Shown here piece by piece: positions 2,471-51,624 of a stretch of 64,000 bases of DNA. Numbering within the stretch: position 1 is the stretch's first letter; the number at the start of each line of letters is the position of its first letter. The stretch is from NCBI GenBank assembly GCA_963575745.1, contig CAUYUJ010000203.1:62001-126000 (forward strand), written 5' to 3'. The DNA is from Prorocentrum cordatum. Taxonomy: Eukaryota. A model generated the notes under the pieces. The model saw nothing but the letters and a program-made list of their open reading frames with translations. It searched no databases and had not been told where the DNA came from. A program made the position numbers and the translations under genes.

Positions 2471-4463
2471 GGGGACGGGGAGCAGGGCCTCGAATCGGGG
2501 GAGCGTAAGACCCGGGTTTGCCAGGACTCGGGTTCGCCATCGTTTTTTGACGACCGCGCCTCGGATTTTGACGAGTAGGAGTTTCGTGGGATGTCTGCAG
2601 CGGGAGGCCTCGTCAAAATGCAGGCTCGGCCTCGTCATTTTTTGACGACCTCGTCGGGGATTTCCGAGTCCCTTGTACCCAGGTCTTACGTCCCCCTGAT
2701 TGAAGGGGTCCATTCGGTTCCCTGTTGGAGCCAGCACGGGTCCTAAATGGCCCCATTTAGTTTGATGTGGTTGACGCATAGAAGGTCCATCGAAAAGAGG
2801 GTGGTGCAATAGATCTGGTGCAAGATGTTTGTGGGATTGCAATACATGTGGGGCGTGCAATAATACATTATCGTGCGCAGATGTATTGTTGGATTCGGGC
2901 GTGCAATCATTAGATGCAACACGATGCAATCTTATTCTCCTGCGTAATAAATTCGCAACACAATTGCCCAAGTCTATAGCACCACCCCCATTTCAGCTGG
3001 ACTCCCCTCTGTGTCAACCAAGGTGAGGGCCTTTTTTTCTGCACCCCCCCATTTAGGCAAGCTCCCATCACCACCCGCCCGAAGGTTTGGCTCATAACCC
3101 TGGCGGCGCAGGAGAGAAAGAGAGAGAAAGAGAGAGAGGTTGTCGACTGGCGTGTTGGCATTCGCGCGCAAATGAAGAGGGAACATTCGGCACGCACACA
3201 AATGAAGATCGATGCCCAGGACAGCAGCATGGGACACATTCGGGAAGCGGCGGGGTAGACGAAACTCCAGAACATGTGGACAAACATCTAGGGAGTCCTT
3301 CAAGGTGTGTATGTTTGGCCGTGCCTCCCTGGGCTCCTTTCGGCCGCCTGCGTAGACTGCTCGGGTGCTGCTGGGAGTGGTCCGGGCCCACGGTGCCCCC
3401 GGCCTGCCCCGCCCGAGCGGCGCAAGAGAGAGATGGCCGACCGCCGCGGGCTCTCGCACGCAGATCGGAGGAGCAAGAAGCTTGGAGTCGTCTGAGGATT
3501 TCTGAAGCGGCCCAGCACTGGTCCTGGGCAGCAAGAAGGGCGGGCAGGTTCAAGGTTCTGGGTTCGCAACGGTTTTGTGCCTCTGTCGGCCTCTGGGGGC
3601 AGTTTTAGGGCGCGGGGACAGTCAAAAACGAATGCTGGGTGAACAACTACACCAGATGGACGCCGGGAGGGGTCCAGGGACCGATTTTGAACGGAATTGG
3701 CGTCATCCCCCCTCCTGACCGATGTTCTGTGGTCCTAATCAGTTCAGATCCCCAGCTCAGATCCCTGGCCGCCTCCAACCAGAAGCCATGACCATGATGG
3801 TGCGTTCCGGGACCCCCCAGGTTTCCTGTTCTTCCCGCTGCCTCCGGTCATGGGGGCCTCTGGATGCCCCAGAGCTCCTGGGTCATATCCTGAGCTCATC
3901 GCTCGATGTCATCGTTCTCGCCCCAGGTCAGGGCTCGTTTCGATTCCTCCGATGCGATTCGATTCGGTTTCGATGGGCTCCGATTCCGATTCGATTCGAC
4001 TTGGGATTCCAATTTGGGTTCCGATTTCTTGTTGGAGGCATACTGGCCTGCCCATGTCCGCCGATCCGATGCTGGGCTCTCCTGCCAGGTGGAGGCTGCC
4101 AGCGCAGACGGCGTCGGCGGCGCGCAAAATCGCCCTCTGCCCCGCGCGGGGTGCCGCCCAGAGGGAGGGCTGCGAGAGCCGCCGCGCGGGGGTCGGCGTG
4201 CCCCCCGGCGCGTGGGCTGGGCGCCCTTCTCTCGGCGACCCGTGCTCGTATCTACCCTCCTCCTCCTCCTCCTCCACCTTCTCCTCCTCCTTCTCCTCCT
4301 CCTTCTCCTCCCTCCTCCTCCTCCTCCTCCTCCTTCTCCTCCTCCTCCTCCTCCTCCTCCTCCTCCTCCTCCCTCCTTCTCCTTCTCCTTCTCCTTCTCC
4401 TTCTCCTTCTCCTTCTCCTCCTCCTCCTCCTCCTCCTCCTCCTCCTCCTCCTCCTCCTTCCTC

Positions 4464-6827
4464 TTTCAAGACCCTTTCAATAAGGGCTCCGCAGCGCCCC
4501 ACGGCGGGGCGCTGTAGCCGAACGCGACGAACTTGTCCCCCCCTCGGTGGCCGCCAGCCTCCTCCACCTGAGGAGGGCGGCACGCTCACCACCCGAGGGG
4601 GCGATGGCGATGAGGAAGCCGCTGTTCAGGTTGGTTACCTCCGTGAAGCCCTGCTGGTGCCCGATGCTCTGCTGGTGCCGGGTGCTCTGCTGGTTCCCGT
4701 TGGTGTGCTGCTGGTTCTCGGGGGTGTGCTGGTTCCCGTAGGTGTGCTGCTGGTTCCCGTCGGCGCGGGGTGGAGGCTTGGCCGCCAGACTGGTGTTGGG
4801 GCACGCCGTCGGAGACGCTCTCCTGGGGCGTGGTGTTTCTGGTGGCGTCGCCGTGGTCGGCTGGGCCATCAGGGTCATCGGGATCGATCTCGTCCTCTCG
4901 GGGGTCGGGCACGGCCTCGAGGATGAAGCGCACCTTCTTGGTCGTAGGGGTTGGTGTGGTGGCAGCCGTCGGAGTCCTCCTCGTGGGAGTAGTCCTGGGG
5001 CTGCTGGTCTTCCTTCTGCGTACTCCAGCGTCCTCCTGCACGATCTTCTCCTCGTTCTCGCCGTCAGCTCGCACGTCGACGCCGGCCAGGATCGCCTCGA
5101 TTCGGGCGGAGATGGGAGGCGAATGCTCCATGGCGGCCTTGGAGGCGGCCATGGAGGCGAAGGCGGCGGCGTTGGGGAGAACGATTCCCGCCGCCTGGAG
5201 TGGTGCAGTGGCTGCGGCATGCCATTGGGGTGTCGTTCGGAGGTCGGGGGTCGTGGGGCCTCTTGGTCGTTGGGCGGGGTCGTCGGGGAAGGATCGTCGG
5301 GGGAGGGGCGTCGAAGGGCGTCGTGGGGTCGTCGAAGGGAGCCGCGTGTCGTGAGGCTTGGGGCGTCGAGGGGGGGGGCGGGGGTCTTCGAGGGTCACGG
5401 GTCTCCTGGGGCACGCCGTCGGACATGGTGTCCTGAGGCGTGGCGTCGTGGTCGGCGTCGCTGTCAGAGTCCTCCTGGTCGGAGTCGTCGTCGGCTGGGC
5501 CGTCTGAGTCCTTCTCGTCCGTCGTCGTCGGCAACAACTGGGTCCTCCTATTGGTACTCTCCTCCTCGTGCTCGGGATCGTCATCCTGATCGTCCGTATC
5601 GCCCTCCTCGGACTCGCTCCCGTAGCTCCCGTAGCTCTTCTCGCAGCTCCCGAGGGCAGCCTCGGAGACGCTCCCGTTGCGCCCGTAGCTCTTCTCGTAG
5701 CCCTCCTCGAAGTCGCTCCCGTAGCTCTCGTTGCCCCCGTAGCTCTTCCCGTAGCTCTTCTCGTAGCCCTTCTCGTAGCTCTCGTTGCTCCCGTAGTTCT
5801 CGTTGCTCCCGTAGCTCCTCCCGTAGTTATCGTAGCTCTTCCCGTAGCTCTCGTTGCTCCCGTAGCTCTTCCCGTAGCTCTTCTCGTAGCCCTTCTCGTG
5901 GCCGTTGATCCGCAGGGCCTCGTGCGTGTCGACGTGGTCGCCGATCCGCTGGGCCTCGAACGCGTCGACGTGTTCGCTGATCCTCTGGGCCTCGTACGTG
6001 TCGACGTGGTCGCCGATCAACTGGGCCTCGTACGTGTCCTGTTTCTTGTGGCCGTTGGTCCGCTGGGCCTCGTACGTGTCGACTTGGTCGCCGATCCGCT
6101 GGGCCTCGTACTGCTTCGCGTGGCCGTCGGTCTTCTGGGCCTCGTAGGTGTCGGTGTGGCCGCCGATCCGCCGGGCCTCGTACGTGTCGATGTGGCCAGC
6201 GTGGCCGGCGCCGCGGCGCGCCGTGGCAGCATGCGCGGCCTCCTCCGCGACCTGTCGGAGGCGGTCGGCCGAGGGACAGGCGACCCCTGGAGATGGGGTG
6301 GTCCAGCAGTGCGCCTGCGGCACCTGGATGGCTATGTACTTGGCGTACTGCTGCTGGTCGTGCTTCGTGTCGGCGCCCGTGCTGTTGGCCTCGGCCCGCG
6401 GCCTGCTGCCGCCGTGGCCCAGCCGAGGTCGACCTGCGGCCAGGGCGATGTCACCTGCGGTGGCGGCCGCGAAGCCCGTCGCGGGCGCGCGTGCCGCGTG
6501 CCGGGCGGCGTTGCGGCGCCTGCGCGCGCCGCCTGGGAGGGGCCGCCCCTCGGCCGGGCACTGCAGGGCCGGGCGCGAGGCGGCCTCGCGATCCCGCCAG
6601 GACCCCGGCGCGCTGTCGCGGCTGCCGAGGGCCCGGCGGAGGCCCGCCTCGCAGGCCAGCCGGCAGCGCATCCGGGCCGCTCGCCGGGCCGCCGAGGCTC
6701 CCTTCTCCTGGGCCTCGCGGGCCCGTGTCCCAGTGGGCCGCCATGCTGGCGGGCAGCCCCCCGCAGCCATGAGAGCACGCCGGGCGGAACCCGCGCGCGA
6801 GCTGGCTTGAGCCAAAATGGCTACGGA
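4464..6827 (-). pseudogene. SL-headed intronless retrocopy or non-autonomous retroelement encoding a tandem-repeat protein (frameshifted)
   Basis: Perfect SL at 6827-6806, ATG at 6770, frame open to 5064, then overlapping frames 4586..5584 and 4477..5220. Repeats: DTYEAQRIGDHV (36 bp), SYGK/SYEK (12 bp), GNQQHT (~21 bp). (CCT)n tracts on both sides. Left boundary approximate. Confidence 0.6.
6806..6827 (-). other. Genomic copy of the dinoflagellate spliced leader
   Basis: cttgagccaaaatggctacgga is the reverse complement of TCCGTAGCCATTTTGGCTCAAG, an exact match to DCCGTAGCCATTTTGGCTCAAG. Confidence 0.97.
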
Positions 6828-8356: not shown

Positions 8357-10750
8357 GTGCCTCGGCCCGAGCTGGATCTGTCACCTCGTGAGAGTTCGTC
8401 GAGGAGGCACAACCCTACACTTTCGGGGCTTCGCCCGGATTTCTTGGATCGGCGCTGAGCCCCACCCCAGCGGCGCCTTCGGAGGCGCCGCTCGGGGGGG
8501 CCCATCGCCGATACGAGACATTTGCGCGGAGCGCCGAGATTTTCGACTTACGCAGCTGTGTGTTCTTCGAAGGGATCGTCCAGATGGTCAGCACCCGAAG
8601 GTGCAGGTTCGATTGAATCCGATGGCGGTGGATGAACGTCTCTAAGGGAATGGAACTATTCTTTCGCAGATGGTGGCCGGTTCCACATGGGGCCTCTGCT
8701 CGTTGTGACTGGATGCGTCCAGCGAATTCACGAGCCCATTGGACCAATGAATCTTCAATATGTAACCCCTTACTGGCTCGATTGAAGACCCAGAGGGACT
8801 TTGGGGCTGCTGACTTCTCTCGTGCTCTTCCCACCTCCCCTACCCGCCCCCCGTCTCTCCCAGCGCCCCGCCTTGTCGTGTCTTGCCATCCCAACTCTCG
8901 ATCCTGAACCTCCTCCTCCTCCTCTTCCTGCTCTCTCTCTCTCTCTCTCTCCTCATCCGCTTCCTTGTTTGCTGTACCTCTCCAGTGCGTCCTCCGCTGC
9001 TCCCAGTCCGACGACGAAGGCCTCCGACGAAGGCCTCCAACAGAGGTCCCCGAGCCTAGACCATGTCCTCCGACAAGAGGCCTCGTTGAGGAGGGGGGGG
9101 CCTTCCCCAGAGGGGGGCGGTGGGCTGCAGGAGGTGATGTCCGTCGTCAGTCCACGATTGGAGTTCCGCCAGCTTCCAGACCCTGGATCCCTGATCCAAT
9201 AGGTCGGCGGCGAGCGCGGGGGGGAAGTGAGAAGGAGAAGGCCTTCTCAGAAGGCGGCGGGGCTTCTCAGGAGCTCTGGCGCCTTCTGAGACGACTTCTG
9301 TGTCTTCGTGGAAGGCTTAGGAGACTTTTCAGGAGACCGGGGGACTCCCGAGCCTTCTGAGAAGGCCCCTCGTCACTCCCCCCTGGGCGCGCCGCCGAAC
9401 AGTTCCTTATCCAATGCCTTTGTTCATCACATGCACAAGCTATATTCACGTATGGTAGCAAAGACATTCGACCCGCATAGTAAGGATGGGGAACCTTCCC
9501 AAGGGTACCCTTGCATCCTTGTCTCCTAGGCCCATCCTTGGCCGCTTTCGCTGGATGCGCCCCGGCCGCACCGTGTCAACATGGCCTTCCCAGGCCCTTG
9601 CATCCTCATCGTGCATCCTTATGATATGGGTTGGTTGCACATCAACATGTCAGAGTGAGGGGGCCGAACTGTCATTCAATTTCCCTGGGTTGGTGGCTGA
9701 AGTGGGGTTCCTCGGTGCGGATTGTTGTTGCGTTGCGTTGCGTTGTTGTTGTCGTCGTCCCACTCGCGACCCGGCCCGTGACCCACCCGCGATCCGCCCG
9801 CGACCCACCCGTGATTCACCGCGACCCACCCACCCGCGACCCCGCCCCCGACTCGCCCACCCGCGACCCAACCCGCGCCCGCCCTTTCACTCTGATCCGC
9901 GACTGCGGGGTGCTGCCCACACACGGAACGGAACGATGTCCCCTACCAAGGGTTGGCTGAGCGGGTCAGGAGAGTTCTTTGGGTTGTTTTTTGTTGGGGG
10001 GGCTTCTCCCTACAGGGGTGGCTTCCCCTATGCGAAGCTGTGCCACTATTGGAGAGGCCTGACGGCCGGTGCCGCCGACCCTGAGTGAAAGGGCTAGGAG
10101 TGGGGGGAGGAAGCGGAGGAGGAGGAGGAGGAGGAGGAGGCGGAGAAGGAGGAGGAAAAGGAGGAGGAGGAGGATTTTTTGTGGCTGTTTTTTGTTGGGG
10201 GGGCTTCTCCCTCCAGGGGGGGCTTCTCCTGTGCGACGCTGTGCCACTATCTGAGGGCGCCGTACCTCGGCCCCCATCCCGCGCCCCTCGAGCCACCCTC
10301 GATCGACCCCTCGATCCTCGATCCTCGATCGGCCCTTCGACCTCGATCGATCCTAGATCCTCTGATCCTTCGACCTCGCCTGACCAGCTTGAGACATCTC
10401 CCGGTCCCTGCGTTTGGCACCGCCTCGCCTCGGTGCCGATCTCGAGGACTCCCTCCATTTCTGAGGGCACGTCCCTGAGACTGTCCTCATTTTTGATGCT
10501 CGCCCCTCTAAGGGATAGTCAGAGCCCCGAATCATCAGGGGTAACTCGGGTCAGGGCTAACTCGGGTCAGGGCTAACTCGGGTTCCTTTTTTCGGGAATC
10601 CAAACCCGAGTTACCCCGGACCCGAGTTACCCCGGATAACTCGGGCGCCCAATTTTTGATGCTCGCCCATCTTAGGGATAGGGATAGGTTCGAGGCTGGT
10701 TAGGGTCGGCCCCCTCGCGGGCCCCCCGCGCCCCGCCCTTCGGGGCGCAG

Positions 10751-10788
10751 GCTCCGTGCCGCACGAGAACGGCCGCATGGGCCACAAG
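10751..10788 (+). CDS. Host gene exon c (G-SVPHENGRMGHK)
   Basis: CAG acceptor and AAG|GC donor. Phase 1 start matches exon b; phase 0 end matches exon d. Confidence 0.75.
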
Positions 10789-10900
10789 GCCTCCGCTCTC
10801 TGCCGCCCGAGGGCCCGGTCCTTGCCTCCCCGCGCGGCTGCATCCCGCTCCTCCCTCCTCCTCCTCCCTCCTCCTCCTCCCTCCCTCCTCCTAAGACTCG

Positions 10901-10942
10901 TCCGTAGCCATTTTGGCTCAAGTCCGTAGTGTTTCACTCAAG
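10901..10942 (+). other. Spliced leader (10901-10922) plus degenerate second SL TCCGTAGTGTTTCACTCAAG (10923-10942)
   Basis: Exact SL match followed by a 20-nt copy conserving TCCGTAG and CTCAAG. Confidence 0.93.
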
Positions 10943-11101
10943 GACTGAGTATTTTGGCGTGGGGGAGCAGCGGCCCCCGAAGGCTTCCGTACCTCCTCTC
11001 TGCCTGCCCAGGCTGGAGGTACCTCTTACACGTGCTACATCGGGACCGTAAGTTCCCTTCAGCAGTTACCAGTTACATCACTTTGCAGCCTGCGAGGGCG
11101 G

Positions 11102-12190
11102 ATGTCTCAGGGTGATGGACGGGCCCCGAAGACGAGCAGGCACGCCCAGAAACGTCGTGCTGATGCGACGGATTGGGTATGCCGCTGGTGCGTCCACCCT
11201 GTGTCAGGCGCGGCTTGGTGGAACAGATCGGACAAAGTGTCATGTCAGAAATGTGGTGTCGCCAAGGCCTCTTCCTTCCTGGAGCCTCGGTTCAAGCACA
11301 CGGCGCCGTCGCAGAAGCAGCAGCGTGCCGACCGTGTGGCCTCTGCCGAGCCGCCGCCGCCATGGCATGCACGCAAGCTCGCGGAGCTGGAGAAGCAGCT
11401 GGCGGCGGCGCGGCAGCAGCTGGCCACCGGTGGGAAGACAGAGAGCAACGCAATGGAGGTCGACGTGGAGAGCGGTGAGCTGCCGCCGCAGACTACCGCT
11501 CAGATCCGAGTTCGCCTTGACGAGATCGATGAGGCCATGCGGGCTATCAAAGATCTCAAGGACCCCTGCTTCGAGAAGGCCAGAGAGGACTTTGAGGCGG
11601 AGCGTAAGCGGCTGCGGGTGGACTTGGAGGCGTCCAAGCCAGTGCCTGCGCAGCTGCGATCGTTGTCATTCCAGTCGGCTAAGTGGAATTCCAAGAAGGT
11701 CAAACACGAGGGCCTGTTGGCAGCCGCCAAGCAGGAGTTGCAGAAGCTGCAGGAGACCATCCGCGAGCAGGAGCAGTTGGTGGTCGAGGCCGAGCAGGCC
11801 ATCTTGCAGATTGCAGAGGAACAAACTAGGCTGGCGTCTACGGTGCCGAGGCCTCCACCGTCCTCCACTGAGGCGGGCGAGCTTGTGGCCGCCCTTGGCA
11901 TCACGGTCGACACGCTTGGAGGCATCTTGGCAGGACTCGGAGACGACGGTCAATTGCAAGCGAAATTGGACTCGGCCTTGGAAGAGGTGCGGGTACTTGA
12001 GGAACGTAAGCGACAGGGGCGGGCGGTACCCGAGGCAGCACAGCAGGAGAAGACTGAGCCGCAGCGGGGGGCCGCCCCACCTGACGATGCCAGGTCTGAG
12101 CCTGGGGGAGTCGACGTACCAACACCAGACGACACGGACCTGGAGGAGCTGCGAGCTTTTCTGGGGCGCTGGTGTCGCGGTGCAGCCTGA
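11102..12190 (+). pseudogene. Element 1 ORF1: RanBP2-like C4 zinc finger plus coiled coil
   Basis: WVCRWC...WNRSDKVSCQKC, then E/K/Q/L-rich heptads. Apparent frameshift near 12170; the continuation AAIRGSVRKLAE resembles the ORF1 end of element 3. Confidence 0.75.
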
Positions 12191-12899
12191 GGCCGATGAG
12201 GCAGCGATCCGTGGGAGCGTTCGCAAGTTGGCCGAAGGGCTCAATGAATGGTCCAAGGTCCAGGGCCTGAACCGAGAAGCGAGCCAAGGTCCAGGTCCCC
12301 GCCTAGGGAGGGACGGCCTTCGGCACACACACGTTGTTGCTCTGCGCACTTCTCGGCACGTACTCTGTTTGTATGGTTGATGGCTCTGGTTCGAACAGTG
12401 GGTGCCATGACGTCGCTGGGCACGGTAGCAGGGTCGCTTGCTGCGAATCCACTGTTCCAGGAGCCTGGCGGCAGTGGAGCTGCTGATGTGGTGGCCAGGG
12501 CGCGCTGCCTGGGTCGGAGCGGCGGCGGCAGAGCCAAGGGCCGTGGCAAGGGACTGGGAGGACGAGCCGCGGACGCGCGGGTGGCCGACGCCTCGTCCCA
12601 CGTCCGACCTCCTGCTCGAGACGTCGACGGACGTAGCGCCCCGAGCGGGAGGGCTGCCGCGGCCCAGGCGGGTCCGCGGCCGCTTGACTCCAGGCCCCGA
12701 CATGGTGCTGAGCTGGACGGGCCAAGCCATGGCGCTGGAGGCCTAGTGGCCAAAGGCCGTGGCAAGGGGCGAGCTAGGCGAGCCGCGGACGCGCGGGTGG
12801 TCGATGCCTCGCCTCTCGCCCCTGGGCCCACTCGGGCCGTCGACGGACGGAGCGCAGCCCCGAGTGGGGCCTTGGCCACAGAGCAGGCTGGTAGCAAGG

Positions 12900-15800
12900 G
12901 CAGCATCGCGACGTTGAATTGTTCGTCCGGGAAGCAGCTGCTCGAGTACATGGTGCACTGCAGTCACACAGTGGTCGCGGTGCAAGAACACCATGTTGCT
13001 CCTAATGATCTGGCTGATGCGCAGCACCGTTTGCTGGGCGCGGGCTGGCAAGGCATGTGGGCAGCAGCTAACCCCACTGGGCAATGGCGGCACGCAGGCA
13101 GGGCTAGCTGTATTGGCGAGGCCGAACGTCCTGATAACGCGTGGGCCGCGCCTGAACGGGCAGACCGAGCTGGCTGGTGGTCGAGCGTTGCCTGCCCAAG
13201 TCCACTGGGGAGTTCCTGGAGGAGTGGTGCTGGTCTCAGTGTATATGTGCGTCAATGAGGGTTGGTCAGACAATAACCTACACATCATGCAAGAGGTTAG
13301 CAGTTATTTGGAAAAATTGAATCATGCTGGCTACGATTGGATTGTGGCAGGAGATTTCAATATTGAAGCGTCGCAGTTTGGTGATATGCGGTGGCTGCAC
13401 GGGCTTGGCGGTATGCTTCGGGCTCCAGTTGCGACCGCATGTCGACAAGCTATGCCTGGTAGTTGCATCGACTAGTTCCTCACATCGTCTAACTTGGTGA
13501 CACGTGTTGGGCAGCCGTGCGTACAGGAAGCGACTACCACTTTCCCACACTTGCCTGTGTACATGCCTATCAGTGGTAAGGACATCCAGTTGTATCATCG
13601 TGAACTTCGTGGGCCGCGTTCTGTGCCCAAGCAGCCGAGACCAGGATGTTCGAGGTTCCCATTATGTTGGCATGGAGTGGCACGTCTTATAGATGCCGCG
13701 TGTGACGATAGCAGTTTGCAAGTGGCATGGGATGCAGTGTTGAGCCACATCGAACTGGAGCTGCTTGCCAGGCATGACATCGCTGGTGCCAAGGTCGAGC
13801 CGTTCGTCGGAGCATGTGGCCCCGTCGAGTTCGAGAAGGTCAAGCTGCAGTGGCAACCGCAACAGAAACGTTCATACTTGTCGAAAGCAGCCAATGCGTG
13901 GAGTGTCGCGGCCAGGTGGGCACGACATATGCGTGGGGCGAAGGAAGCGATCACCAACGTCACGGCGTTGGTGAGTCACCAGCAAGAGACAGGCACGTTG
14001 GACACACCCCTTTATCACAAGCTGTCGAACTTGATGATTGAGCTTGGCCGTTTCGTGGCGAAGGTGTTGTCCGAGACGGCCGTGCTTAGCGAGCTCGACA
14101 GCTGGGCGTCTGACGTTTTTCTTTCAGGAATGGAGTTCCTTGTCTATCCAGAATTCGATGCAGTGCTAGATGCGATCGAAGCCAAAGCAGCGGAGCTTGC
14201 TGAGGCACGCAGCCAGAAGACCGCCAAAGCCTGGAGGGACTGGGCGGCAGCTAGCTTCATTAATGGTGCGCGTTTCGCGCATAGGCACACGAGGGGGAGG
14301 GCGTTGCAGGAGGTGGTTAATGCAAATGTGACTGCTCGCACGCCGGCCCAGCCGCATCAGTTAGCCGATAAGGCCATGCGGGAGTGGGACAATATCTGGA
14401 CGATGCATGATGTTGCCGCCCCACAGTTGCCAGCAGAAGCGCAGGACTGGGAAGAGCTCCCACCTTTGACTGTGCTAGACGTGCAGCGCGCCATTCTTCA
14501 GTTTCCATGGGCGACGGGAGTCGGCCAGTTTAGCTTCGCACCCCGCAGTCTTATTTTCCTGAGCAATTCAGGCCTGGCGGCCGTTGCCAAGCTATTCATG
14601 AAGTGTGAAAGTCTCTTGATCTGGCCATCTTGTAGACTGCTGACGCAGCCAGTTCGCCTCCCCAAGGCGTCAGGGGGATGCAGATTGATAGCGCTCTTGA
14701 ACACGCTTCTGAGAGTCTGGGGTAGAGCCCGCAGGCCCATGGCGGCCGCCTGGGAGGTCGAGCATGACCTCGAATGTTTCTGGGGGGCGGGAGCTGGTAG
14801 GTCGAGCTCGGACAGCGCGTTTTCTTTGAATCTTGATGCTGAGATAGCGCGCGGGATAGGAGAGGACAGCCTCACAGTCTTTATCGATATGCTGAAATGC
14901 TATGAGACTGTCATTTTGCAGAGCCTGCTTCACGAGGCTAGGCTGAATCAGTTCCCGATGAGATTAGCATGGATGACGATCCAGACATACTTGCAACCTC
15001 GCTGCCTGCGTGCCTTTGCTTCGCTGCCTGTGCCAGTGCATTCCAATCAGGGAATCCTAGCAGGCTGTTCTTTGGCCACTACAATGCTTCGGGTCCTTTT
15101 GCATAGAAGCCTGCAGGATAGCATGACTATATGCCCCACGGTCAAGCCACGATCTCTGATCGATGACGTGAGCTTCCACTGGACTGGTGAACGGGCCAGG
15201 GTGGGAGAGCACGACGGTCAGGCCAGAGACTTGGCCAATGCAGTTCACAGCTTTTGCCTTAGCGTGAGGCCGCTAGGGTTAGTAGTCCAGCCGAGCAAGT
15301 CAGGGTTCGTTGCGAACACGACTCGAGGTCGATATAGATTCGCTCGATTAGTCAAGCTTCTTCGTATGAGAGCGAAGCGAGCGATGCGCAATTTAGGGCA
15401 CGAGATGCACGGCACTAGGGTCTTGCGTGTGCAAGAAAAGACGCGTCTTAAGAATCTCACGGCTCGTAGGCGCAAAGTGTGGGGATTGAAGCACGCCGCG
15501 GGGGAGGCCGTGAAATCTTTGTGGAGGGCGGGGCTCCTCCCAGCTGGCGGCCATGGCGCTGGAGTGTCTGGGATATCCGGCACGGCTATTCGAAAGCTTC
15601 GAACGTTCGCTGGAGGCATGTGCGGGGCCAAGCCCAAGGCGTCGCTCACTCTGTTTTTAGCAACGCAGCGAGACGACAGGTTCGATTCCATTTTTGATGC
15701 GACGGTTCCTCTGGTGGTTAGGTTTGCTTCGTTCATCTGGGACAATAGGGTCGCGCCTGGGCGGCTCCGTAGAGCATGGGATGCGGTCAAGGCCAAGCTC

Positions 15801-17591
15801 GACCATCGCACCTCGTGGACCAGAGCTCGTGGCCCCATCGGCTCTGTTTGGGTCACGCTTCTGCGAGTGGGTTGGACGATGTTTTTCTCCAACAGTGCTT
15901 GTGGACGATCGAGGTCGCCACGTCGATTTAGTGAGGAATTGCCCAGGTGATGTGAAAGCCTTCTTGGAGGAAGGCCTTCGCCGCTGGCAGGTATATAGGA
16001 TCCTTCAGCACCTTCCCAACAGCCTTGGAGAGAGCTGCTGGAGGAGGGGAATGCGGAAAGCAGTTCTTGCAGTGAGAGACGTTGCGAGGCGAGGCGCCTT
16101 GCGAACGCTCTGGTCGTCAGGAGTTTGGACCCCCGAGCGGTTGCACAGCATAGGTCTTCGCAGTTCCCCGCAGTGTTTCGTGTGCAAGCAGGCGATTGGC
16201 AACGAGTCCCATCAATGGTTCGAGTGCGAAGCCATGTTAGAAGGATTGGACGTGACAGTTCCTGATCGTGTCCTCGAGCTTAGGACGGCCATCAAGGCCA
16301 AGCATAATTCGCAGTCTGGAGCGGATCAATTTTATCTCAGCTTCGGTTTGCCGCCTGAGCCGCCAGCGCTGTCGCCCCCGAGCGACGTGTACCCTGTGAT
16401 GGGATGGGGGGACTGGCGTGGGCGATGGGGGCGGAGGGTGTTCGCGGACGGAAGCGGCCAAGCGTCGTCGATCCCAGAGCTGGCCCGCTGCGGCTGGTCA
16501 GTGGTAGAAGTCGACGATGCGGGCAATGTTTTGCGTGCAATTTTTGGCGCGCCCCCAGGAGCGGTACAGACGGTGCCGCGAGCGGAGCACTACGCAGCGC
16601 TCAAGGCAGTAGAAGTTGCGCAGCAGCCAGCGATTGTCGTTTCAGATCACCTGAATCTGGTGCGAGAGGGGTGTGCTTGGTCGGAGGCAGCTGCCTCGTC
16701 TAGTGGCCGTCGCGCTGCGGTGTGGGAAAACATTCGTCGGATCTGTTCGGAGGCTCCTCCTACCTTCGAGTGGGTCCCAGCCCACGGAGATCTCTCGGCG
16801 GTCTTGGAGGCCCCTGATTGCGATTTTGTCCGTTTCGTTGCGCACGAGTGGGCAGACTTCTTCGCCGAGCGTGGGGCTCTGGTGCACTCTACAGGCCAGA
16901 CCATGCAGGACTATTATATGCAAGCCATGAAGGCGGCCAAGGACCATTCCCATGTGTTTGCATGGATGGCCCAAGCAGCCGCCAAAAAGAAGGTGGAGCT
17001 CCAGCCCAGGGAAGTTGTGCCGTCTCAGGTCTGTCGTGTCGTCACCACCCCCCTGGTTGTGCTGGACTCGCATGAACTTCGATATTGCGAGAGCCTGTCA
17101 GAAAACAGGTGCCTGAATTGTAACAGGTTCGCGAGGACTCCCGACTCCTTAAGGCCCTTCGAGCGAGGCGATGCGAGCCCACGGATCTCCTGCGAGCGAT
17201 GGCGACGCGTTATTTCGCCCTCACCCCCGAGCGCTATCGGCACGCCTCGCTTGCGGCGGACGCCGCCGTGCGCGCTGCAGGCCTTGATGAAGGCCCAGGG
17301 CCCCCTGGAGGCCCGCCTGCGGGAGGGGGAGTGGGGGCTAACGTCGTCGCCGTCGGGGTCGATCGGGAGGTGGAATTGTATTCGGAACTTGGCCACGGTG
17401 TGGAGCGTTTCGGTTCCACGGTCATCTGCCTCTGCTGTGGGGCTTTCAGTGTGGCTGGAGGCCGCATCCGCAAGCTGCGTGCCCAGTGCAAGGGGCACTC
17501 GGACGTAGCTTCCACGCGTGCGAACGAGGAGATGCAGATCTCCCGTGCGTTGCGCGGGCTGCACCCCCGATCGGGGGACCCTTGCCCATGA
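12900..17591 (+). pseudogene. Element 1 ORF2: EEP/APE endonuclease, RT, RNase H, C-terminal Cys-rich region (disrupted)
   Basis: EEP: IATLN, VAVQEHH, WIVAGDFN, CID*F. RT: LPKASGGCRLIAL, FIDMLKCYE, GILAGC, LIDD, MRNLG. CFVC..ESHQWFEC. RNase H: VFADGS, RAEHYA, VVSDH, WVPAH, ADFFA. C-terminus CLCCG...LRGLHP. Confidence 0.9.
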
Positions 17592-18219
17592 TGCCCTCGA
17601 CGCCAGGTCTCCTCCGTCGGCCTTCCGACGCGGCGGGGACGGCGCTGTCGAGGACTAGCGGCACGGTGCGATGGCTCGTGGCCTCGCCGTGTTGCTTCCA
17701 ACTTCCTTCCCGCTGAAGCGGGTCCGCACGCTCGGACTCGCTCTTCATCGCTCGCTGCCTCCTCCTAAGACTCCTTCCTCCTCCTCCTCCTCCCCCCTCC
17801 TCCTCCTCCTCCTCCTCCTCCTTCTCCTTCTTTTCCTCCATCTCAGACCTCCTTCCTCCTCCCTCCCTCCTCCTCCCTCCTCCTCCTCCTAAGACTCCTT
17901 CCTCCTCCCTCCCTCCCTCCCTCCCTCCCTCCCCTCCCTCCCTCCCTCCCTCTCTCCCCCCCTCCTCCCCCAGAGACGAACCGAAAGCAAACTGCCAGAA
18001 ACATATGGACACACACACACAGACACCGATATAAATGCACACGCACACACATCCCAGGATTCCGTTCTATATCCCCCCATTTGTTCTTGACGTTCGTCTT
18101 CCCCCCAGTCCCCATCATGATTCCCAGGCCTTCCCCGGGAATCGACGATCATTTGTGACTGCGTCCTTTCCTCTTCCCTCCGAATTTGCGTTGAAGAAAA
18201 TACAAGGAAAATAAACGTT

Positions 18220-18360
18220 TGGCGCTCCGCGCGGACTCTTTTGGATCTGCGCTGGGCCCCCTCGGCGGCGCCTCCAGCTCCGCCCCTGGCGCGCTCCGCG
18301 CGCCAGAGAGGGGGGGGGGTGTCCGGCGCAGATCCAAGAAATCCGCGCAGAACGCCACAA
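18220..18360. repeat. Abundant fold-back repeat with core gcgccgcccctggcgcgctccgcgcgcca (also ~7657, 8420, 30935, 31340, 35065, 54240)
   Basis: Inverted arms gcgctccgcgcgga..ggatctgcgc / gcgcagatcc..tccgcgc.ga.cgcc recur across the window. Confidence 0.7.
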
Positions 18361-23725: not shown

Positions 23726-24324
23726 TACATCGCTTATGTGCCTCTTGTGGTACCAATCATTCGGGGGGTCTCTTGGAGACACTGTTTGGGGCTCTGGGGA
23801 ACCGTCTAGGGGCCTCTTGATGCCTCTTAGGGGCCTCTTGGGGCTTCTTCGTGGCCTCTTCGGGGTCTCTTGGGGGCTCTTGGGGGCCTGTCGGGCCACA
23901 TGGGCATTTTGAGGCGGAAGGCTCGAATGTTCGGTTCGTGATCCCCCTCCTGGGCCCCTCTCCTGGGTGTTTTCTTGGAGCCCTCTTGCGCCGACTTCGG
24001 GGGGGGGGAGGGAGGAGGAGGAGGAGGAGGAGGAGGAGGAGGAGGAGGAGGCGGAGGAGGCGGAGGAAGAGGAGAACTAGGGGATGGGGTCGCAGGAGAC
24101 GACGACGACGACGATGACGATGACGATGACGACGACGAAAACGACGACGACAGGGGGGTCTCGGGTTTCTGTTGTGCGTTCGTGGGAGGCCTTTTAGTCG
24201 TCTCTTGGAAGCAGTTTGTCGGCCTCTGGGAGGCCGTCTGGTGATCTCTTGGGGCCTAGTCTGGGCCTCTTGGGGCCTCTTGGGCGTTTCTTGGGGCCTC
24301 TTGGAGGCCTCTTGGAGCCTTCTA

Positions 24325-24489
24325 TCAGAGCGTGAATTACCTACCCCGCTTTCGCTTCCAGGCAAAACCAAGCCATACCACGAGTCGCCTCGTCAGGCGG
24401 CCTGACCAGTACAGGTTGCAATTTGGCATCGTTTGGTATCTCTTGGAAGCGAGGGTGGTCAAAAGCGAGGTAGGTTTGTTTTCCCCCTA
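24325..24489. mobile_element. 165-bp fold-back element, family C (TSD TTCTA)
   Basis: Closely similar to 60611-60775. TTCTA at 24320-24324 and 24490-24494. Nested inverted repeats (ACCTACC/GGTAGGT, TCGCTTCCA/TGGAAGCGA). Confidence 0.78.

Positions 24490-44140: not shown

Positions 44141-44141
<1 letters not shown>

Positions 44142-44210
<69 letters not shown>
44142..44210. repeat. Poly(T) tract followed by (AT)n
   Basis: Direct inspection. Confidence 0.9.
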
Positions 44211-44216
<6 letters not shown>

Positions 44217-44482
44217 AAAAAATGTACTGGACACGCCCGACCTGACCACGCCCTCGACGGCCGCGGCCCCCGCAGCGAACCCCCCCGGGGGACCCGCGCC
44301 CCCCCCCGTGCCCCCTGCTCGCGGGCCTCCCCGGGAGCGGGGCGCGCCCCCGCCCGCGGCGGCGCCCTGCCCCGGCTCACGCGTGGGCGAGCGCGTGCGC
44401 CCAGCCATGGGCATGGAGGCGGAGGAGGAGGAGGAGGATGGAGGAGGAGGATGGAGGCGGAGGAGGAGGATGGAGGAGGATG

Positions 44483-44523
44483 TCCGTAGCCATTTTGGCT
44501 CAAGTCCGTAGCGGTTGCTCAAG
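44483..44523 (+). other. Spliced leader (44483-44504) plus degenerate second SL TCCGTAGCGGTTGCTCAAG (44505-44523)
   Basis: Exact SL match followed by a 19-nt copy conserving TCCGTAGC and GCTCAAG. Confidence 0.93.
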
Positions 44524-44646
44524 GATTTGAGATCTGGCAGGGGGGATCGCGCGGCCCCCGACAGCTTTCCCTTGCGTTCGCCCGCCAGGCATCTTCCACA
44601 TCACGTTCAGGCTATCGAAGCGCCACTTTCACTGCCCACATCCTCG

Positions 44647-45963
44647 ATGGCTCCTTCTTCGTCTCGCTTCACTTATAACCCGTGGGCGCAAGCATCTGAG
44701 GGTGATGACGGGGAAGGGGAGTGGCAGGTCAAAGGCGGTGGCAAGTGGTACAACAAATTCAAGTCGCCCATCAAGTGCCCAGGTTGTGGGTGTCGTAAGA
44801 ACGCTCCCTCGGCGAAGTGGTGCAAAAACTGTCATGGTCCTCTCCCTCAGGTTCCAACTACTCCTGGTCGCTCTGGCCCTCTTGCTCTGTCCTACTGGTC
44901 GAGACCGCCTGGGTGGTTCGGCGCTGCCTCTGGGAATAAAGGAGGGCCTGGTGGTAAAGGCGTCGGCAAAGGCAAAGGCAAGGGTTTCAATGATGCGTTT
45001 CGGTTCGAGTGGCATGGTTCAACCCCAGGAGGCCAGCTGCAGCCCGCAGGGATGGGAGGGGGTGCCCCGCCGCTCCCCGCTGGACTTGTTCCTGCGCTGT
45101 CCGTCGATGAAGCTAAGCAGATGGCCTCCCTGTCGTACAAGGCGGGGGATGCTACGAGGGCTACGAGGGGCAAGTACTATACCGACGTGGCGGCCAGCCT
45201 GGAGGCCGCCAGCAAGCCTACGGAGATCAATGTCCACCAGCAGGTTCAACAGCAGCATGCCGCAGTCCGTCGCCTGGAGAAGCAGCTCGAGGGACAGCTC
45301 ACTCGCTTGCTCAAGTGGAAGCAGGAGACTGCAGAGCTGGAGGAGCAGGTTCGCCAGTCGCGGGACCAGCTCGGCAAGGCCGATGAGGAGTACAAAGCGG
45401 CGGTCGAACGGCTTCGTGACAGCAGTGGCGCAGGCGCGACAGGCGCTGGAGAGACCTCGGCTCCGCGCAGCACTCCAGCCATCCCGCTGCGGGACATCAT
45501 GGAGGGCAAGTTCGATCTCACGAGCATTATCAAGTTTGACATTATGGAGGAGTTCGAGAGCAGCGAGTACGATGTCACGATGGAGATCGCAAGGAGTACC
45601 AGACTCGGCTGGAGAAGTTGCAGTCTGGCGTGCAGGACCTGTCCAAGTCATTGTTCGAGCAGCTCACCTCTACGGCCGCGGAGGTCAAGGCAGCCCATCT
45701 GGCTCACAAGGCACGGCTTCAGCGCAAGCGACGTAAAGGTGACGATGGCGAAGGACTTCCTGTTCAGGACGATGACGATGCAGGTCGCGGTGCCGCGGCA
45801 GGTGGAGGAGAGGCTGCTGCGCCTTCTGAGCCAGGCGCCGCGTCTCAGCCTGCTGCGAGGCCTGCCGCTGCTGCTGCAGCCGCTGACATTCGAGCTCGGG
45901 TTGACCAACATTTGTCAGGTGTTCCCCCCCCCTCGCTTGAGGGGGGGCGGCCTAGTGGTGTAA
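44647..45963 (+). pseudogene. Element 2 ORF1: C4 zinc finger, GKGKGKG motif, coiled coil (frameshift near 45590)
   Basis: CPGCGCRKNAPSAKWCKNC; GKGVGKGKGKG; heptad region RRLEKQLEGQLTRLLKWKQETAELEEQVRQ. 3' end approximate. Confidence 0.72.
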
Positions 45964-46389
45964 ATTGTGGCACTCCGAGCTCGGGTGACTTGTCCTCTTT
46001 TTTTCAACTTTTTGGCAGGCCGAGTCTCTTCTGTTGGCTCTCAGTACAGAAGTCAGGCTTGCGCTTGGCGCGCAAGCTACACTCGATGTCCCAGGGCGTC
46101 TCCGAGTTTTTTCCTGCTCCAATTTTTCCTTGGGACCCTCATCCTGTGCCCCCAGGTGACCGTGAAATCCCTGATCCTCGTCCCTCTTCTCCCTGGTCTG
46201 GCAGATCAGACGTTGAGCGATGGTCCCGCAGCCATGGTGTCGCGCGCTTGCCGCCATCCGATCTTTTTTGCTGGAGCAAGTACGGTCAGGGCCTCCAGTC
46301 GGGGAGGGGCTATGGACTGGTCAGCCCCCGCCCCTGCGCCTCCAGCGACGTCTGGTCCAGCCAGGCCACAGAGTTGCGGGCTCGACGAA

Positions 46390-49300
46390 GGCCTGCCGGT
46401 GTCCACCGTGAACGCCAACTGCTGGGGCACACTGAAAAAAACTACCTTACGAGCAGTGTATCGCATATCGTTATCGCGCAGGAGCATCGCCTACGAGGTG
46501 ACGACGATATTGCAACGGCCGCGAAAGGGACCAAGTTTTTGGGTTGGGAGTCGCTCTGGGCTCCTGGTATAGTTGGCGAGGGCGGGGACACCTCCTCTGG
46601 GGTCGGCGTCATTGTGCGTGACGCGCTCGGCATGTTCGAGCACCAGGACGAGATCGTGCTGGCCGAGGGCCGCGCGATAGCAGCCATGGTGCACGTGCCA
46701 GGGTGCGCCACCTTCTGCGTCTTCTCCCTCTACCTCCGCCACAGCGAAGGTCTGTCAGAGGCCAACTTGTCTATCTTAAAATCAGTGGGGGGAATTTACC
46801 GGGGGTTTAGAATGCGATTTCATCATTGGGGCTGACTGGAATTTCCCCCCCGAGGCTTTGGCTGCGTCTGGCTTCCATGCTAAGGCTAATGGGGTGATTG
46901 TCAGTTCCTAAGGGCACGCTCACTTCCCCAGGGTCGGCACCCCCGAACGTTTTGATTTGTTCGTTGTGTCGCGCGCCCTCTCCCTCGGTCTCAAGCAGAT
47001 CGATGTGCAGGGGGACTCGCCCATCCACCCTCATAGACCTGTGTCTCTGCGTTTCCACGCGTCTGTTGGTGATCTCAAGGCTCTCGCCTTCCGACGCCCG
47101 CATGACCTTCCTGTGGGGCCACCGGTTGGCCCGCAGCCTGAGCCTGGGTCGTGGGAGGTCCCCCTTGGGCTGGCGCGCGAGGCTTTTCGGGCGGTGCAAG
47201 AGGGCGAAGGTGATCGTGCTCGTGCTATGCTGGCCCCTGGATACCGTGCGTGGGCCAACTCGGCCGAGCGGGACCTCAGCGCCATCATGGGGGTGATGGT
47301 TCCTAGGGGGGCCAGGGGTAAGCGGCCGCAGATGCATTGGAAGAGCATTCCGGAAGAAGGGGGCCGTGAGCCTAATCCTACCCTCAGGTCGGTGCTTTGG
47401 TTGAGCAGCCAACTTCGTGCTCCCAGGTGCTACTTAAGCTCTGAGGGCCTTCTAGATGGAGGTCGTCAGGTGCTGGCGGCGCTCGCGGAGCCGCCGACGA
47501 CGGTGGCGGTGGCAGAGAACTCAGACTATGCGCCTCTTTTTCGCACTGCCGCTGGCTTAGCGCGTAGTCTGCTGCGCTCGGTGGACGATCCCGAGGTGGC
47601 CGCCGACCTCGATCGGCACATCTGCGAAGTTTCTGAAGCTTGTGTCACTGCTAAGGCATCCGCGGCCAAGTCCTCTCGGATGGCATGGTGCGAATGGGTG
47701 CGTCAAGGGCTCGAGAAAGGGACGCGTAATGCGCAGAGGGCTATTCGGGACCCTGTGGCCTGGGCTCCCACCACAACTCTCTGTCGCTCAGGCATTGCGG
47801 TGTCAGATCCCATGAGCTTGCTCAAGGCTGAATCGGCCAAGTTTATTTCTATCTGGGGGGAAGGTGCTGGCCAGGGTCTTTGCGGTAAGGAATTGTTGTC
47901 ATGCCCCCCCCCCTTCTCGAGCCCGACATCATCAGGGCCATGTCCAAGAAATATCGGCCTGCCTCTGCTGTCAGCTTGGACGGCTTCCACTGCCGTCATT
48001 TCAGCCTGCTCCCTGACGAGGCTCTGATGGCTCTTTTTCTGTGGTTCTCGGTCATGGAGGCCACGGGGTCCTTGCCTGTCCAGCTCTCTTGGGTGCTGGT
48101 CGCCTTGTTGGCCAAGCCCTGCGGGGGCTTCCGGCCCATCGGGATTTTTCCGAGCTGGTACCGTGTCTGGGGCAGGTGCCGTCGTTTCGAAGCTCTTCGT
48201 TGGGAAATCCAGCACAGCCGCCATTACTGGGCGGCGGGGGCTCACCGTGGTGCGGGGGGCGTGGTCTGGAGGCAGGCTTTCAGAGCGGAGTCGGGGACGG
48301 TCAGAGGTCAGGTCAGCGCGTCTATGTTTTGGGATTTGCGTAAGTACTACGATCACATAGACCTCGGCTTTCTTTGGGCCACGTGTAAGCATCATCAGTT
48401 TCCTTTGGAAATCGCGCGCCTCGCGATTCACGCCTACTCCTGCGCGAGGTTCATGACCCTGGGGGGAAGTGTCGACGGCCCCTTCTATGCCCTGAGAGGG
48501 ATCGTCGCGGGTTGCACCTTCGCGACGAGCCTTATTCGGGCGTTTGCCTTAGAGGCTTTCGACTCCATCCCGAGGGGACCTGATTTTGACGTTTATGTTG
48601 ACGATTTGAGCCTCAGCGCGACAGGCAAGCCCAGCTGTGTTTCGAAGCTTCTTGTTTCAGGCGCTAGAGCTCTGCACTCTGCGATCACGACGAATATCAA
48701 GTGCAAGCTGGCTATGGACAAAGTTGGCATGGTCTCCAGCAGCAAGCACATTTCTGCTGCGCTCTCGGCTGAGCTCGGGGACTTAGTTGGCGATCCAGCT
48801 TGCACTCGGGTGACCAACTTAGGTGTGGATTTCACGGCTGGCAGAGCGGTCAGAGCTCCTGGAAAGAATCGGAGTTCCAAGGCTAAGCAGAGGGCGGCAG
48901 CGGCCCTCAGGAAAGCTCGCCGTCTCGGGAGATTGGGCCCCACTCTGGGGCGCAAGGTGGTTAACATCTTCACCTCTGGACCCTTAGCTGGGACTGTGTA
49001 TGGTTCGGACTTGCATGGGGTCTCTGACCGTGAGCTGCTGTCGCTTCGACGATTGGCCATGTCTTGCGTTAAACCCTCTGTCCAGGGTAGGTCCCTTGCC
49101 GTTTTGTGTCTTTTAGAAAGGACCCCACGTGGAGGGCCAGCTGCGCCCCTATCATCCGCTGGGCCAAGGAGGTGTGGATCCGTCAGGCGAGGGCCTTTGA
49201 GTGGGCCCTGAGCTGGGCCGAGCTTCGGACTGGGTGGAGTTCGGTTTTTCAAAAAAGACGACTGGACCTGGGCCAAAGTTTCGGGACCTATCTCAGGGCT

Positions 49301-50913: not shown

Positions 50914-51624
50914 GGTACAGGTTCAGTGCCGCACCAGTTGCGCCTCTGGGCTGGTCGTGCAGACACTGTTCTCATAACAGAGGCCGCGGCGTTGCTGCTC
51001 AAAAAAAAAGGAGGAGGATGGAGGAGGAGGAGGAGGCGGAGGAGGAGGGGGCGGAGGAGGAGGAGGATGGAGGAGGAGGAGGAGGCGGAGGAGGAGGAGG
51101 AGGAGGAGGAGGATGGAGGAGGAGATGGCAAGCTAGGCGGAAGAGGAGGAGGAGGATGAGGAGGAGGAGGAGGAGGAGGCAAACTAGGTGCGCTGGCGTC
51201 ATATCTGGCGTCCTTCCCCTCCCTCCCATCCCTTACCATGTTGCAGACCTCCTCCCTATTCGCACAGTCGGAGGTCGAGGCAGGGCAATGATCCCGACAG
51301 GGTGCGCGATGCATCGTAGAGCACGGCATAGCAGGGCGTAGAAGAGCACGGCAGAACGTAGTATGTCATAGCATGGCGCGGCGGTGCGCAGTGAAGAATT
51401 GCATCACAAAGCATTGCAACGCACATATTGGCATCGCACAGCGGCACAGAACAGAGCATGGCATAGCATGGCGTTGAATATCAAAGCGTAGCATGGCATA
51501 GCATGGCGTGGCAATGCGTAGTCAAGCATTGCATATCCTAGCATTGCAGCTGAAGGCATGGCACCGCATAGCAGAACACCACATAACGTTGCATTGCATG
51601 CCGTGGCATGGCACTGGAAATAAT

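Follow-up and report, generated by a model that had tools for sequence, protein, structure and literature searches.

Dinoflagellate messenger RNAs receive a 22-nucleotide (nt) leader tag from the host by trans-splicing, and retrogenes tagged with this dinoflagellate spliced leader (SL; DinoSL) were reportedly described by Slamovits and Keeling in 2008, under the term 'mRNA recycling'. In other hosts, the non-LTR (long terminal repeat) retrotransposons SLACS, CZAR and CRE of trypanosomatids and NeSL-1 of nematodes occupy a fixed site in SL RNA genes and use a restriction-like endonuclease. Among long interspersed nuclear elements (LINEs), mammalian L1 makes target-site duplications and an A tail, occasionally adds an extra 5' G, leaves 5'-truncated copies, mobilises cellular messengers in trans, and has an internal promoter and no leader; Kibi, Koshi, Dong, Waldo and Mino are microsatellite-specific LINEs. 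Here we analyse a 64,000-nt stretch of Prorocentrum cordatum DNA (contig CAUYUJ010000203.1, positions 62,001 to 126,000; hereafter "the window", 61% G+C and free of N) that holds two LINEs, E1 and E2, whose mobile units open with the complete host SL.

Relic leaders and mass retroposition in dinoflagellates are already well described in print. More than 20% of the genes in two Symbiodiniaceae genomes carry relic leaders, and the available text of the dinoflagellate genome papers states the enzyme source and the integration route as unknown. Genes for 'RNA-dependent DNA replication' are enriched among SL-tagged genes, the mediator being called unknown in the parts available of Song et al. 2017 (PMC5585692); truncated relics are read there and in the accessible part of PMC12014239 as re-splicing inside an old SL. 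Excerpts of a 2018 review favour LTR elements (Ty1/copia) as the source of retroposition (PMC6050394), and in those of another paper non-homologous recombination is named as the integration route (PMC9651163). No description of LINE units opening with DinoSL was found in the literature searched, from whose scope supplements and subscription papers (including the 2008 retrogene paper) were left out. Nor do the available portions of PMC3229502, PMC7245778, PMC12014239, PMC3942190, PMC8045281 and PMC10235124 describe duplications around SL-headed copies or microsatellite targets, and those of PMC5585692, PMC6050394, PMC10666404, PMC7789003, PMC11453091 and PMC9651163 likewise describe no SL-first LINE units, SL-copy duplications or microsatellite targets.

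The spliced leader is the first 22 nt of two divergent LINEs

The 21-nt DinoSL core CCGTAGCCATTTTGGCTCAAG occurs exactly three times in the window, at 10902-10922 (+), 44484-44504 (+) and 6806-6826 (-), where none is expected (it was absent from 100 dinucleotide shuffles). A T stands directly 5' of each core, completing the full 22-mer TCCGTAGCCATTTTGGCTCAAG in 3/3 copies. Two of the three SLs head the divergent LINEs E1 and E2, and the third heads a retrocopy that is not a LINE, E3. A sequence-only reading of this DNA had claimed that E1 and E2 open with the exact 22-nt SL, and this was borne out (10901-10922 and 44483-44504, both on the + strand). Its description of the two elements as highly divergent also held: by blastn, E1 and E2 match at the DNA level only over the first ~90 nt (81% identity), and their reverse transcriptases (RTs) are 27% identical over 425 aa.

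The mobile unit of E1 (10901-17757, +) extends from the SL to the 3' target-site duplication. The duplication, CCTCCTCCTAAGACTC, is an exact 16-bp repeat at 10884-10899 and 17758-17773; its limit is 16 bp, the next upstream base being C on one side and G on the other. The reading that it encloses the SL was thus confirmed at 16 bp, with one extra G between the 5' duplication and the SL (10900, +). This G is foreign to the target, the 3' duplication being followed by C and not G, and was possibly copied from the RNA cap. A third copy of the 16-mer lies at 17882-17897, so the E1 target is itself a locally repeated CT-rich tract. CTTCC follows both this third copy and the 3' duplication, which fits a duplication made by the insertion rather than two earlier tandem copies. 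The anatomy of the unit shows that the RNA used as template had the SL at its extreme 5' end, and that its whole length was copied into a staggered break.

The E2 mobile unit (44483-51009, +) runs from the SL to an A9 tail (51001-51009, +). Its flanks are a GGA-rich minisatellite in which one 19-mer is present five times, and two duplications can be drawn: the 19-mer at 44462-44480, followed by TG, with 51010-51028, or an 11-mer at 44472-44482, abutting the SL, with 51010-51020. A target-site duplication is therefore compatible with the E2 sequence, but it is not unique. A run of ~40 T followed by (TA)n lies at 44141-44212, 270 bp upstream of E2.

Microsatellite GGA/CCT surrounds all three window insertions. 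The GT intron that follows the SL in an SL RNA gene is absent at E1, E2 and E3, and a search of the window with Rfam found nothing; since an SL RNA gene is absent from all three sites, the SL came in with the RNA. In each of the three, the genomic SL stands directly at the 5' end of a copied messenger, as in DinoSL-tagged retrocopies. The proposal that the SL belongs to the inserted unit rather than to the target thus stands, on the position of the SL within the E1 duplication, the microsatellite flanks, the missing SL intron and the empty Rfam search.

Domain organisation places the elements among non-LTR retrotransposons

Behind the leader, E1 has a 5' untranslated region (UTR; beyond the head described below, 10943-11101, +), the element's first ~110 nt being conserved with E2 and with two elements on public contigs, L004 and L005. 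Open reading frame (ORF) 1 (11102-12190, +; 362 aa) encodes a C2C2 zinc finger (WVCRWC...CQKC) and then a coiled-coil-like region; Pfam gives weak hints only (Vps36-NZF, E = 0.013). In ORF2, an endonuclease/exonuclease/phosphatase (EEP) region in two frames (12248-13475, +; Exo_endo_phos E = 2.6e-4, below the cut-off) is followed by a linker and the RT (13476-15950, +; RVT_1 E = 2.4e-4, below the Pfam cut-off) and by a zf-RVT and RNase H region (15661-17508, +; below the cut-off in Pfam, recognised with the profile A2). The 3' end (17509-17757, +) has no poly(A). All four domains, EEP, RVT_1, zf-RVT and RNase H, score under their curated Pfam cut-offs in E1. We also used a family profile, A2, made from E1 and 20 relatives, which matches the E1 ORF2 pieces with E values from 1.6e-10 (the EEP region) to 6.3e-273; its C-terminal match (17124-17588) lies in another frame than the 15661-17508 region. 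With HMMER, 2844 relatives were found at E <= 1e-3.

The frame of E1 ORF2 changes near 13079 and near 15882 (a run of five T), both within short homopolymers, and a TAG stop stands at 13473-13475. Contigs of other runs have one base fewer at 13079 and one fewer at 15882, and in a scripted test removal of these two bases joined the frames into 408 aa, one TAG stop and 1343 aa. The frame changes may be real decay or assembly error; E1 is a full-length copy with slight damage. E2 is likewise a full-length copy, damaged more than E1. Its ORF1 (44647-45963, +; 438 aa) has a C2C2 zinc finger (KCPGCG...CKNC), a G/K-rich stretch and a coiled coil, and remnants of its ORF2 in several frames (linker, RT, RNase H region and C-terminal part; 46912-50910, +) match profile A2 at 2.1e-32 to 4.2e-152. 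Pfam detects the E2 RT (RVT_1, 7.3e-6) and no EEP domain in this element.

Two further proteins gave clearer domain calls: the large frame of L018, an intact element on a public contig, and P0042, one of the 2844 relatives. The RT is of the non-LTR type, with an RVT_1 score of 43 bits in L018 against a cut-off of 29.6. An EEP domain lies N-terminal to it (36.7 bits in L018, 28.3 in P0042 and 21.2 in E1; cut-off 24.5) and an RNase H domain C-terminal to it (25.9 bits in L018 and 27.4 in P0042, cut-off 25.8; weak in E1, 6.2e-3). In P0042, EEP, RVT_1 and RNase H all exceed the cut-off. The earlier description of E1 and E2 as EEP-RT-RNase H elements is supported: the three domains are above cut-off in L018 and P0042 and weak in E1, and in E2 the EEP was not detected. 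Pfam reported no restriction-like endonuclease in E1 or L018, and none of these elements is inserted at a fixed site within SL RNA genes. A duplication and a defined 3' end or A tail are seen as 16 bp without an A tail in E1, and as A9 in E2 and A6 in L018, where the duplications are repeat-ambiguous. Against the chains of the PDB, profile A2 matched human L1 ORF2p (8e-10) and R2 proteins (2e-7), and also retroviral and cellular RNase H and the EEP-fold protein CdtB; phmmer searches of the PDB with the E1 RT and with P0042 gave no match. The elements thus share with mammalian L1 the copy features listed at the outset and the match to human ORF2p, and differ from it by their RNase H and zinc-finger ORF1, in a comparison made on features and PDB chains.

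Together, E1 and E2 are two deeply diverged dinoflagellate non-LTR families, with a zinc finger and coiled coil in ORF1 and EEP, RT and RNase H in ORF2. RT identity among E1, E2 and L018 is 25-29%, and each has a perfect SL core; judged by this divergence, the three SL-headed LINE lineages are old.

Spliced-leader-headed elements on public contigs

A scan of metagenome contigs for the SL followed by TCCGTAG yielded five loci (L001-L005). L004 and L005 are two insertions of one family, in the order (CCT)n, AG, SL, decayed second SL and ORF1, and the ORF1 finger of this family shares 47% identity with the E2 finger. L001 opens with an exact SL-SL head, followed by a LINE-type ORF1 with zinc finger and coiled coil, and L002 and L003 have SL-SL heads ahead of unrelated ORFs. 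The 28-mer of SL plus TCCGTAG had no match in the viral contig collection.

A second scan, of prokaryote genome contigs for the SL core alone, gave 20 loci on contigs of metagenome-assembled genomes (MAGs), which we take as stray dinoflagellate DNA. L018, found in this way through the SL alone, is complete and intact. It reads (GA)n, C plus the 21-nt SL core, a 93-nt UTR, an ORF1 of 370 aa with a RanBP2-type (zinc) finger, an open frame of 2536 aa with EEP, RVT_1 and RNase H, A6 and again (GA)n. By tblastn, its EEP, RNase H and ORF1 had no match in the window at E <= 0.01. A C2C2 finger in an ORF of at least 100 aa, 214-303 nt after the SL, is present at 6 of the 20 sites that are SL-headed and not SL-RNA-like (E1, E2, L001, L004, L005 and L018), a count that is biased because five of the 20 came from the pattern demanding a second SL. 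At eight further sites on MAG contigs the SL is followed by GT, as in an SL RNA gene.

Two smaller features of these contigs should be recorded. L003:45 and L018:116 have C before CCGTAG, where T, A or G is usual; this could be a species variant, a misread modified first base or first-base loss. L007:9001-9021 and L013:9001-9021 are exact 21-nt cores in long, bacterial-looking contigs (a 5.3-Mb chromosome and a 209-kb contig), with neither an SL-RNA-like intron nor a microsatellite; by our own arithmetic ~0.3 exact 21-mers are expected in the prokaryote contig collection, and these two may be chance matches or misassembly.

A perfect first leader stands beside a decaying second one

When the heads of E1, E2, L004 and L005 were aligned, all 22 SL columns and the next seven (TCCGTAG) were invariant, and 35 of the 88 columns after the SL are invariant by our own count. 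The sequence adjoining the SL is a second SL, decayed in all four elements while the first is perfect: in E1 it is TCCGTAG plus TGTTTCACTCAAG (20 nt, TCCGTAGTGTTTCACTCAAG; 10923-10942, +) and in E2 TCCGTAGCGGTTGCTCAAG (19 nt; 44505-44523, +). L004 and L005 have an AG immediately 5' of the SL, and its use as acceptor would produce a double head of this kind. Outside the SL, the UTRs of L018 and L001 could not be aligned convincingly with those of the E1/E2/L004 group. When the 5' UTRs of three families were folded as a consensus, hairpins were predicted, with two-sided changes in 3 of 24 pairs and a positive covariation term, which we do not take as evidence of structure.

From these double heads, exact in L001 and decayed in E1, E2, L004 and L005, it follows that a copy already headed by the SL was transcribed from upstream and went through trans-splicing a second time. 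On the simplest reading, the second SL is a relic left by a single earlier round that used an acceptor just 5' of the old SL, and L001 is the fresh product of such a round. An invariant first SL beside a decaying second fits renewal of the first SL in each cycle. Since long diversification has added nothing further to the head, exact replacement of the SL must have been the rule in nearly all cycles. A stable head of this kind (perfect SL, decaying second SL, no array of relics) calls either for splicing to the AG that ends the SL or for transcription that starts precisely at its first position, and the sequence alone cannot tell these two apart.

The truncated relic CCATTTTGGCTCAAG does not stand behind the first SL in E1 or E2, whose second SL has the full start TCCGTAG..., and E3 has no relic. 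It was seen only in L016 (42-62, -), where the SL is followed by two truncated relics (CCATTTTGGCTCAAG twice) in the classical relic pattern, a form absent from the LINE heads.

Probable copying from trans-spliced messengers and its alternatives

Movement via SL-bearing RNA, as the sequence-only reading had proposed, is well supported: the SL heads the unit within the E1 duplication, three RT lineages carry it, and double heads occur. We infer that the SL of the LINEs derives from trans-splicing, the only origin that agrees with both the exon-only junction and the double heads. Each copy was made when a capped LINE messenger of full length, with the host 22-nt SL at its 5' end, underwent target-primed reverse transcription, and the SL is accordingly the first 22 nt of the mobile unit; the anatomy shows this step. 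The shared target type and the junction anatomy suggest that insertion would be into purine/pyrimidine or other simple repeats, and that the LINE machinery would also copy ordinary SL-bearing messengers such as that of E3. For the rest of the cycle, we favour a scheme in which transcription of the inserted element would come from outside, read-through within a transcribed array being one example, and the host would trans-splice a fresh SL onto the read-through LINE RNA. In most cycles the acceptor would be the AG that ends the genomic SL, and the head would be replaced letter for letter; occasional use of an AG just upstream would add a whole second SL, which would later decay. Regeneration of the SL at its terminal AG, without a promoter, is a plausible hypothesis with one serious rival, an internal promoter with an encoded SL. 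We give the explanation as a whole, that SL-headed LINEs are copied from trans-spliced messengers and their head is renewed at the terminal AG, a probability of roughly 0.6. The broader picture, in which these LINEs are promoter-less trans-splicing parasites with a self-renewing SL acceptor and are also the microsatellite-seeking machinery behind mass SL-tagged gene retroposition, is offered tentatively, and we lean somewhat against it.

Several observations weigh against copying from trans-spliced messengers with renewal at the terminal AG. The retrogene relics in print are mostly truncated (CCATTTTGGCTCAAG), and a preference of the LINEs for the terminal AAG| would then lack an explanation. 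The duplication of L018 cannot be fixed uniquely in (GA)n, nor can that of E2 in its repeats. The public SL-headed examples were selected by an SL search and form a biased sample, and the LINE pieces found independently of the SL (with the RT profile, in three MAGs) sit on contigs truncated on both sides and are uninformative on 5' ends. Finally, the ~110 nt of 5' UTR conserved among E1, E2, L004 and L005 look like an internal promoter, and giant-virus contigs hold 136 genomic DinoSL sites, most of them at a fixed distance behind an AT-rich motif, a precedent for a leader encoded downstream of an element's own promoter.

These last two points favour the most serious alternative, although we consider it rather unlikely: that the SL is encoded, with an internal promoter in the 5' UTR starting transcription at SL position 1 and the leader kept by selection, for example for translation. 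Trans-splicing would then have been needed only once or twice in the past of the lineage. The UTR is conserved even though the RTs are 27% identical, as in the promoter modules of other LINEs, and the available text on trypanosomatid LINEs describes an internal promoter, Pr77, and unspliced transcripts (PMC1874656, PMC8190864). Those elements, L1Tc/ingi, resemble the present ones in having a host that practises SL trans-splicing and a short 5' module conserved across families; in the same sources, however, Pr77 transcripts are unspliced and carry no SL, whereas the dinoflagellate elements have the SL as their first 22 nt, a contrast of interest in itself, since trypanosomatid LINEs avoid the leader. 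Against an encoded SL stands its need for perfect purifying selection on all 22 nt, acting in three or more old lineages next to a second SL that is free to decay, and L018 has no clear UTR homology beyond the SL. Moreover, the double heads mean that upstream transcription and trans-splicing of SL-headed copies do occur.

Alternatively, the SL-headed elements could be dead-end copies, i.e. processed pseudogenes of masters that lack a genomic SL and have a 5' end of their own and an ordinary trans-splice acceptor. The damage in E1 and E2 agrees with this, but each new copy of a trans-spliced master would be SL-headed, so that SL-less masters would have to be very old. In addition, the second SL common to E1, E2, L004 and L005 indicates at least two rounds via an SL-headed copy followed by long diversification, and L018 is SL-headed with both ORF1 and ORF2 open. 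We regard dead-end copies as improbable. A role of the SL as promoter seems very improbable here. In this scheme, TTT(T/G) within the genomic SL would act as core promoter for RNAs that start 3' of it and acquire a new SL at a site still further along. It was proposed for retrogene survival in the available part of Song et al. 2017 (PMC5585692), but each cycle would delete the stretch from the old SL to the acceptor and erode the head, whereas the second SL right behind the first is kept in three families and the extremity of the unit is in every case the SL.

That the SL belongs to the target, as in the SL RNA gene insertions of SLACS, CZAR, CRE and NeSL-1, or stands there by chance or as an assembly artefact, has nothing in its favour beyond a non-LTR element standing beside spliced-leader sequence, and can be dismissed given the SL inside the E1 duplication, the microsatellite targets, the absence of an SL intron, the EEP-type endonuclease, the three exact copies against 0 expected, and the same anatomy on independent public contigs. 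A template jump of the RT onto SL RNA was rejected by reasoning: it would bring in SL intron sequence, and none is present.

Target choice and a retrocopy that is not a LINE

Purine- or pyrimidine-only tracts of at least 18 nt make up 3.0% of the window, and both junctions of E1, E2 and E3 fall within them, the tracts being used in both orientations. Upstream flank of at least 14 nt is available for 18 SL-headed sites, and a microsatellite abuts 10 of these (nine by a period test and E1 by reading). The repeat units at SL-headed sites are GGA/CCT, GA, AGT, CAT, GT-rich and GACA; GGA/CCT and GA adjoin LINEs, and AGT, CAT, GT and GACA adjoin other SL-headed copies. Insertion into simple repeats is shared with Kibi, Koshi, Dong, Waldo and Mino, from which the present elements are set apart, by the description of their targets alone, through the use of several repeat types in both orientations.

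E3 is an SL-headed retrocopy from a multi-copy gene family. Its exact 22-nt SL (6806-6827, -) is preceded by (GGA)n and C, and its body (4461-6805, -; ~2.35 kb, with a repeat-rich ORF) stops where (GGA)n resumes, without poly(A). The ORF (within 4461-6827, -) encodes tandem peptide repeats of DTYEAQRIGDHV-like units. It has no RT or EEP similarity, and its relatives are several Prorocentrum cordatum proteins with 37-42% identity.

As in DinoSL retrogenes, a genomic trans-spliced leader marks these LINEs as DNA copies of a mature messenger, and repeated rounds leave relics. In contrast to those retrogenes, the LINE messenger itself encodes the copying machinery, the relic is a whole second SL and not a truncated one, and the copies bear marks of target-primed reverse transcription, namely duplications, A tails and microsatellite targets; SL-first LINE units are not described in the available portions of Song et al. 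2017 (PMC5585692). The LINEs thus offer concrete sequence evidence on the source of SL-tagged retroposition, in that their messengers are SL-tagged and their integration bears those marks, and they are likely the makers of many SL-tagged gene copies in dinoflagellate genomes. With E3, an SL-headed copy that is not a LINE has the same type of target as the LINEs, which makes the question of the enzyme source directly testable. The elements also raise the mechanistic question of how a retrotransposon keeps a defined 5' end in a promoter-scarce genome.

Genome-encoded leaders on giant-virus contigs

Host leaders are also carried by other parasites of dinoflagellates. According to the available text of PMC10235124, dinoRNAV bears dinoSL at its 5' end. 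On IMG/VR giant-virus contigs (loci L025-L142, for example L027:9001-9021, L130, L109 and L047; G+C ~20%) we found the exact DinoSL core at 136 distinct sites. Among the 134 with at least 45 nt upstream, the first SL base is A in 127, the upstream sequence is at least 75% A+T in 124, and TGAWAA stands 43-45 nt before the SL in 82. Different gene starts follow these SLs, and the loci encode the major capsid protein of nucleocytoplasmic large DNA viruses (NCLDV), VLTF3, MutS, DNA polymerase X and photolyase. From their sequence, these appear to be viral genes in which a viral promoter precedes a host leader encoded in the genome; a literature search for giant-virus genome-encoded DinoSL found no paper describing it. 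Both dinoRNAV, as far as the text seen goes, and the giant-virus contigs resemble the LINEs as dinoflagellate parasites with the host leader at the RNA 5' end. In the giant-virus contigs, however, the SL lies behind an AT-rich motif at each gene, whereas the SL of the LINEs occurs once, at the end of the unit and inside the duplication.

The surroundings of E1 and other repeats of the window

Logan contigs of four DNA runs were compared with the E1 region. Among the matches listed, no contig bridged an empty E1 site (10899 joined to 17774), and none had loose ends at the E1 5' junction. In run X1 the flanks 10300-10833 and 18043-18300 have summed depths in the thousands and the E1 body 29-167, figures that are not copy numbers; they suggest that the DNA around E1 is a very abundant short tandem or dispersed repeat. 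Many joints going back ~126-131 bases lie around 10520-10650. One marine-metagenome contig of run X3 leaps over 6330 bases, from 10922 directly to 17253, but its SL side is just 20 letters long. It may have been copied from an RNA that was internally trans-spliced or deleted, or be an accident of alignment, and is too weak to serve as evidence.

Outside the window LINEs, 150 ORFs of at least 150 aa gave no Pfam match at E <= 1e-5. The third LINE of the window, E4 (60813-64000, +), has EEP and RT, is 29% identical to E1 in amino acids and continues past the window end. It has neither a full SL nor the zinc-finger part of ORF1. At its apparent start stands GGCTCAAG alone, plausibly by chance, this 8-mer occurring eight times in the window, three of them within SLs. 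E4 is probably 5'-truncated, with no bearing on the SL question either way. Shortly before it, a 165-bp repeat (60611-60775) lies between perfect 31-bp direct repeats (60580-60610 and 60776-60806). Its second copy (24321-24487; 93% identity) apparently has only a short duplication (TTCTA); the repeat may be a small non-autonomous mobile element.

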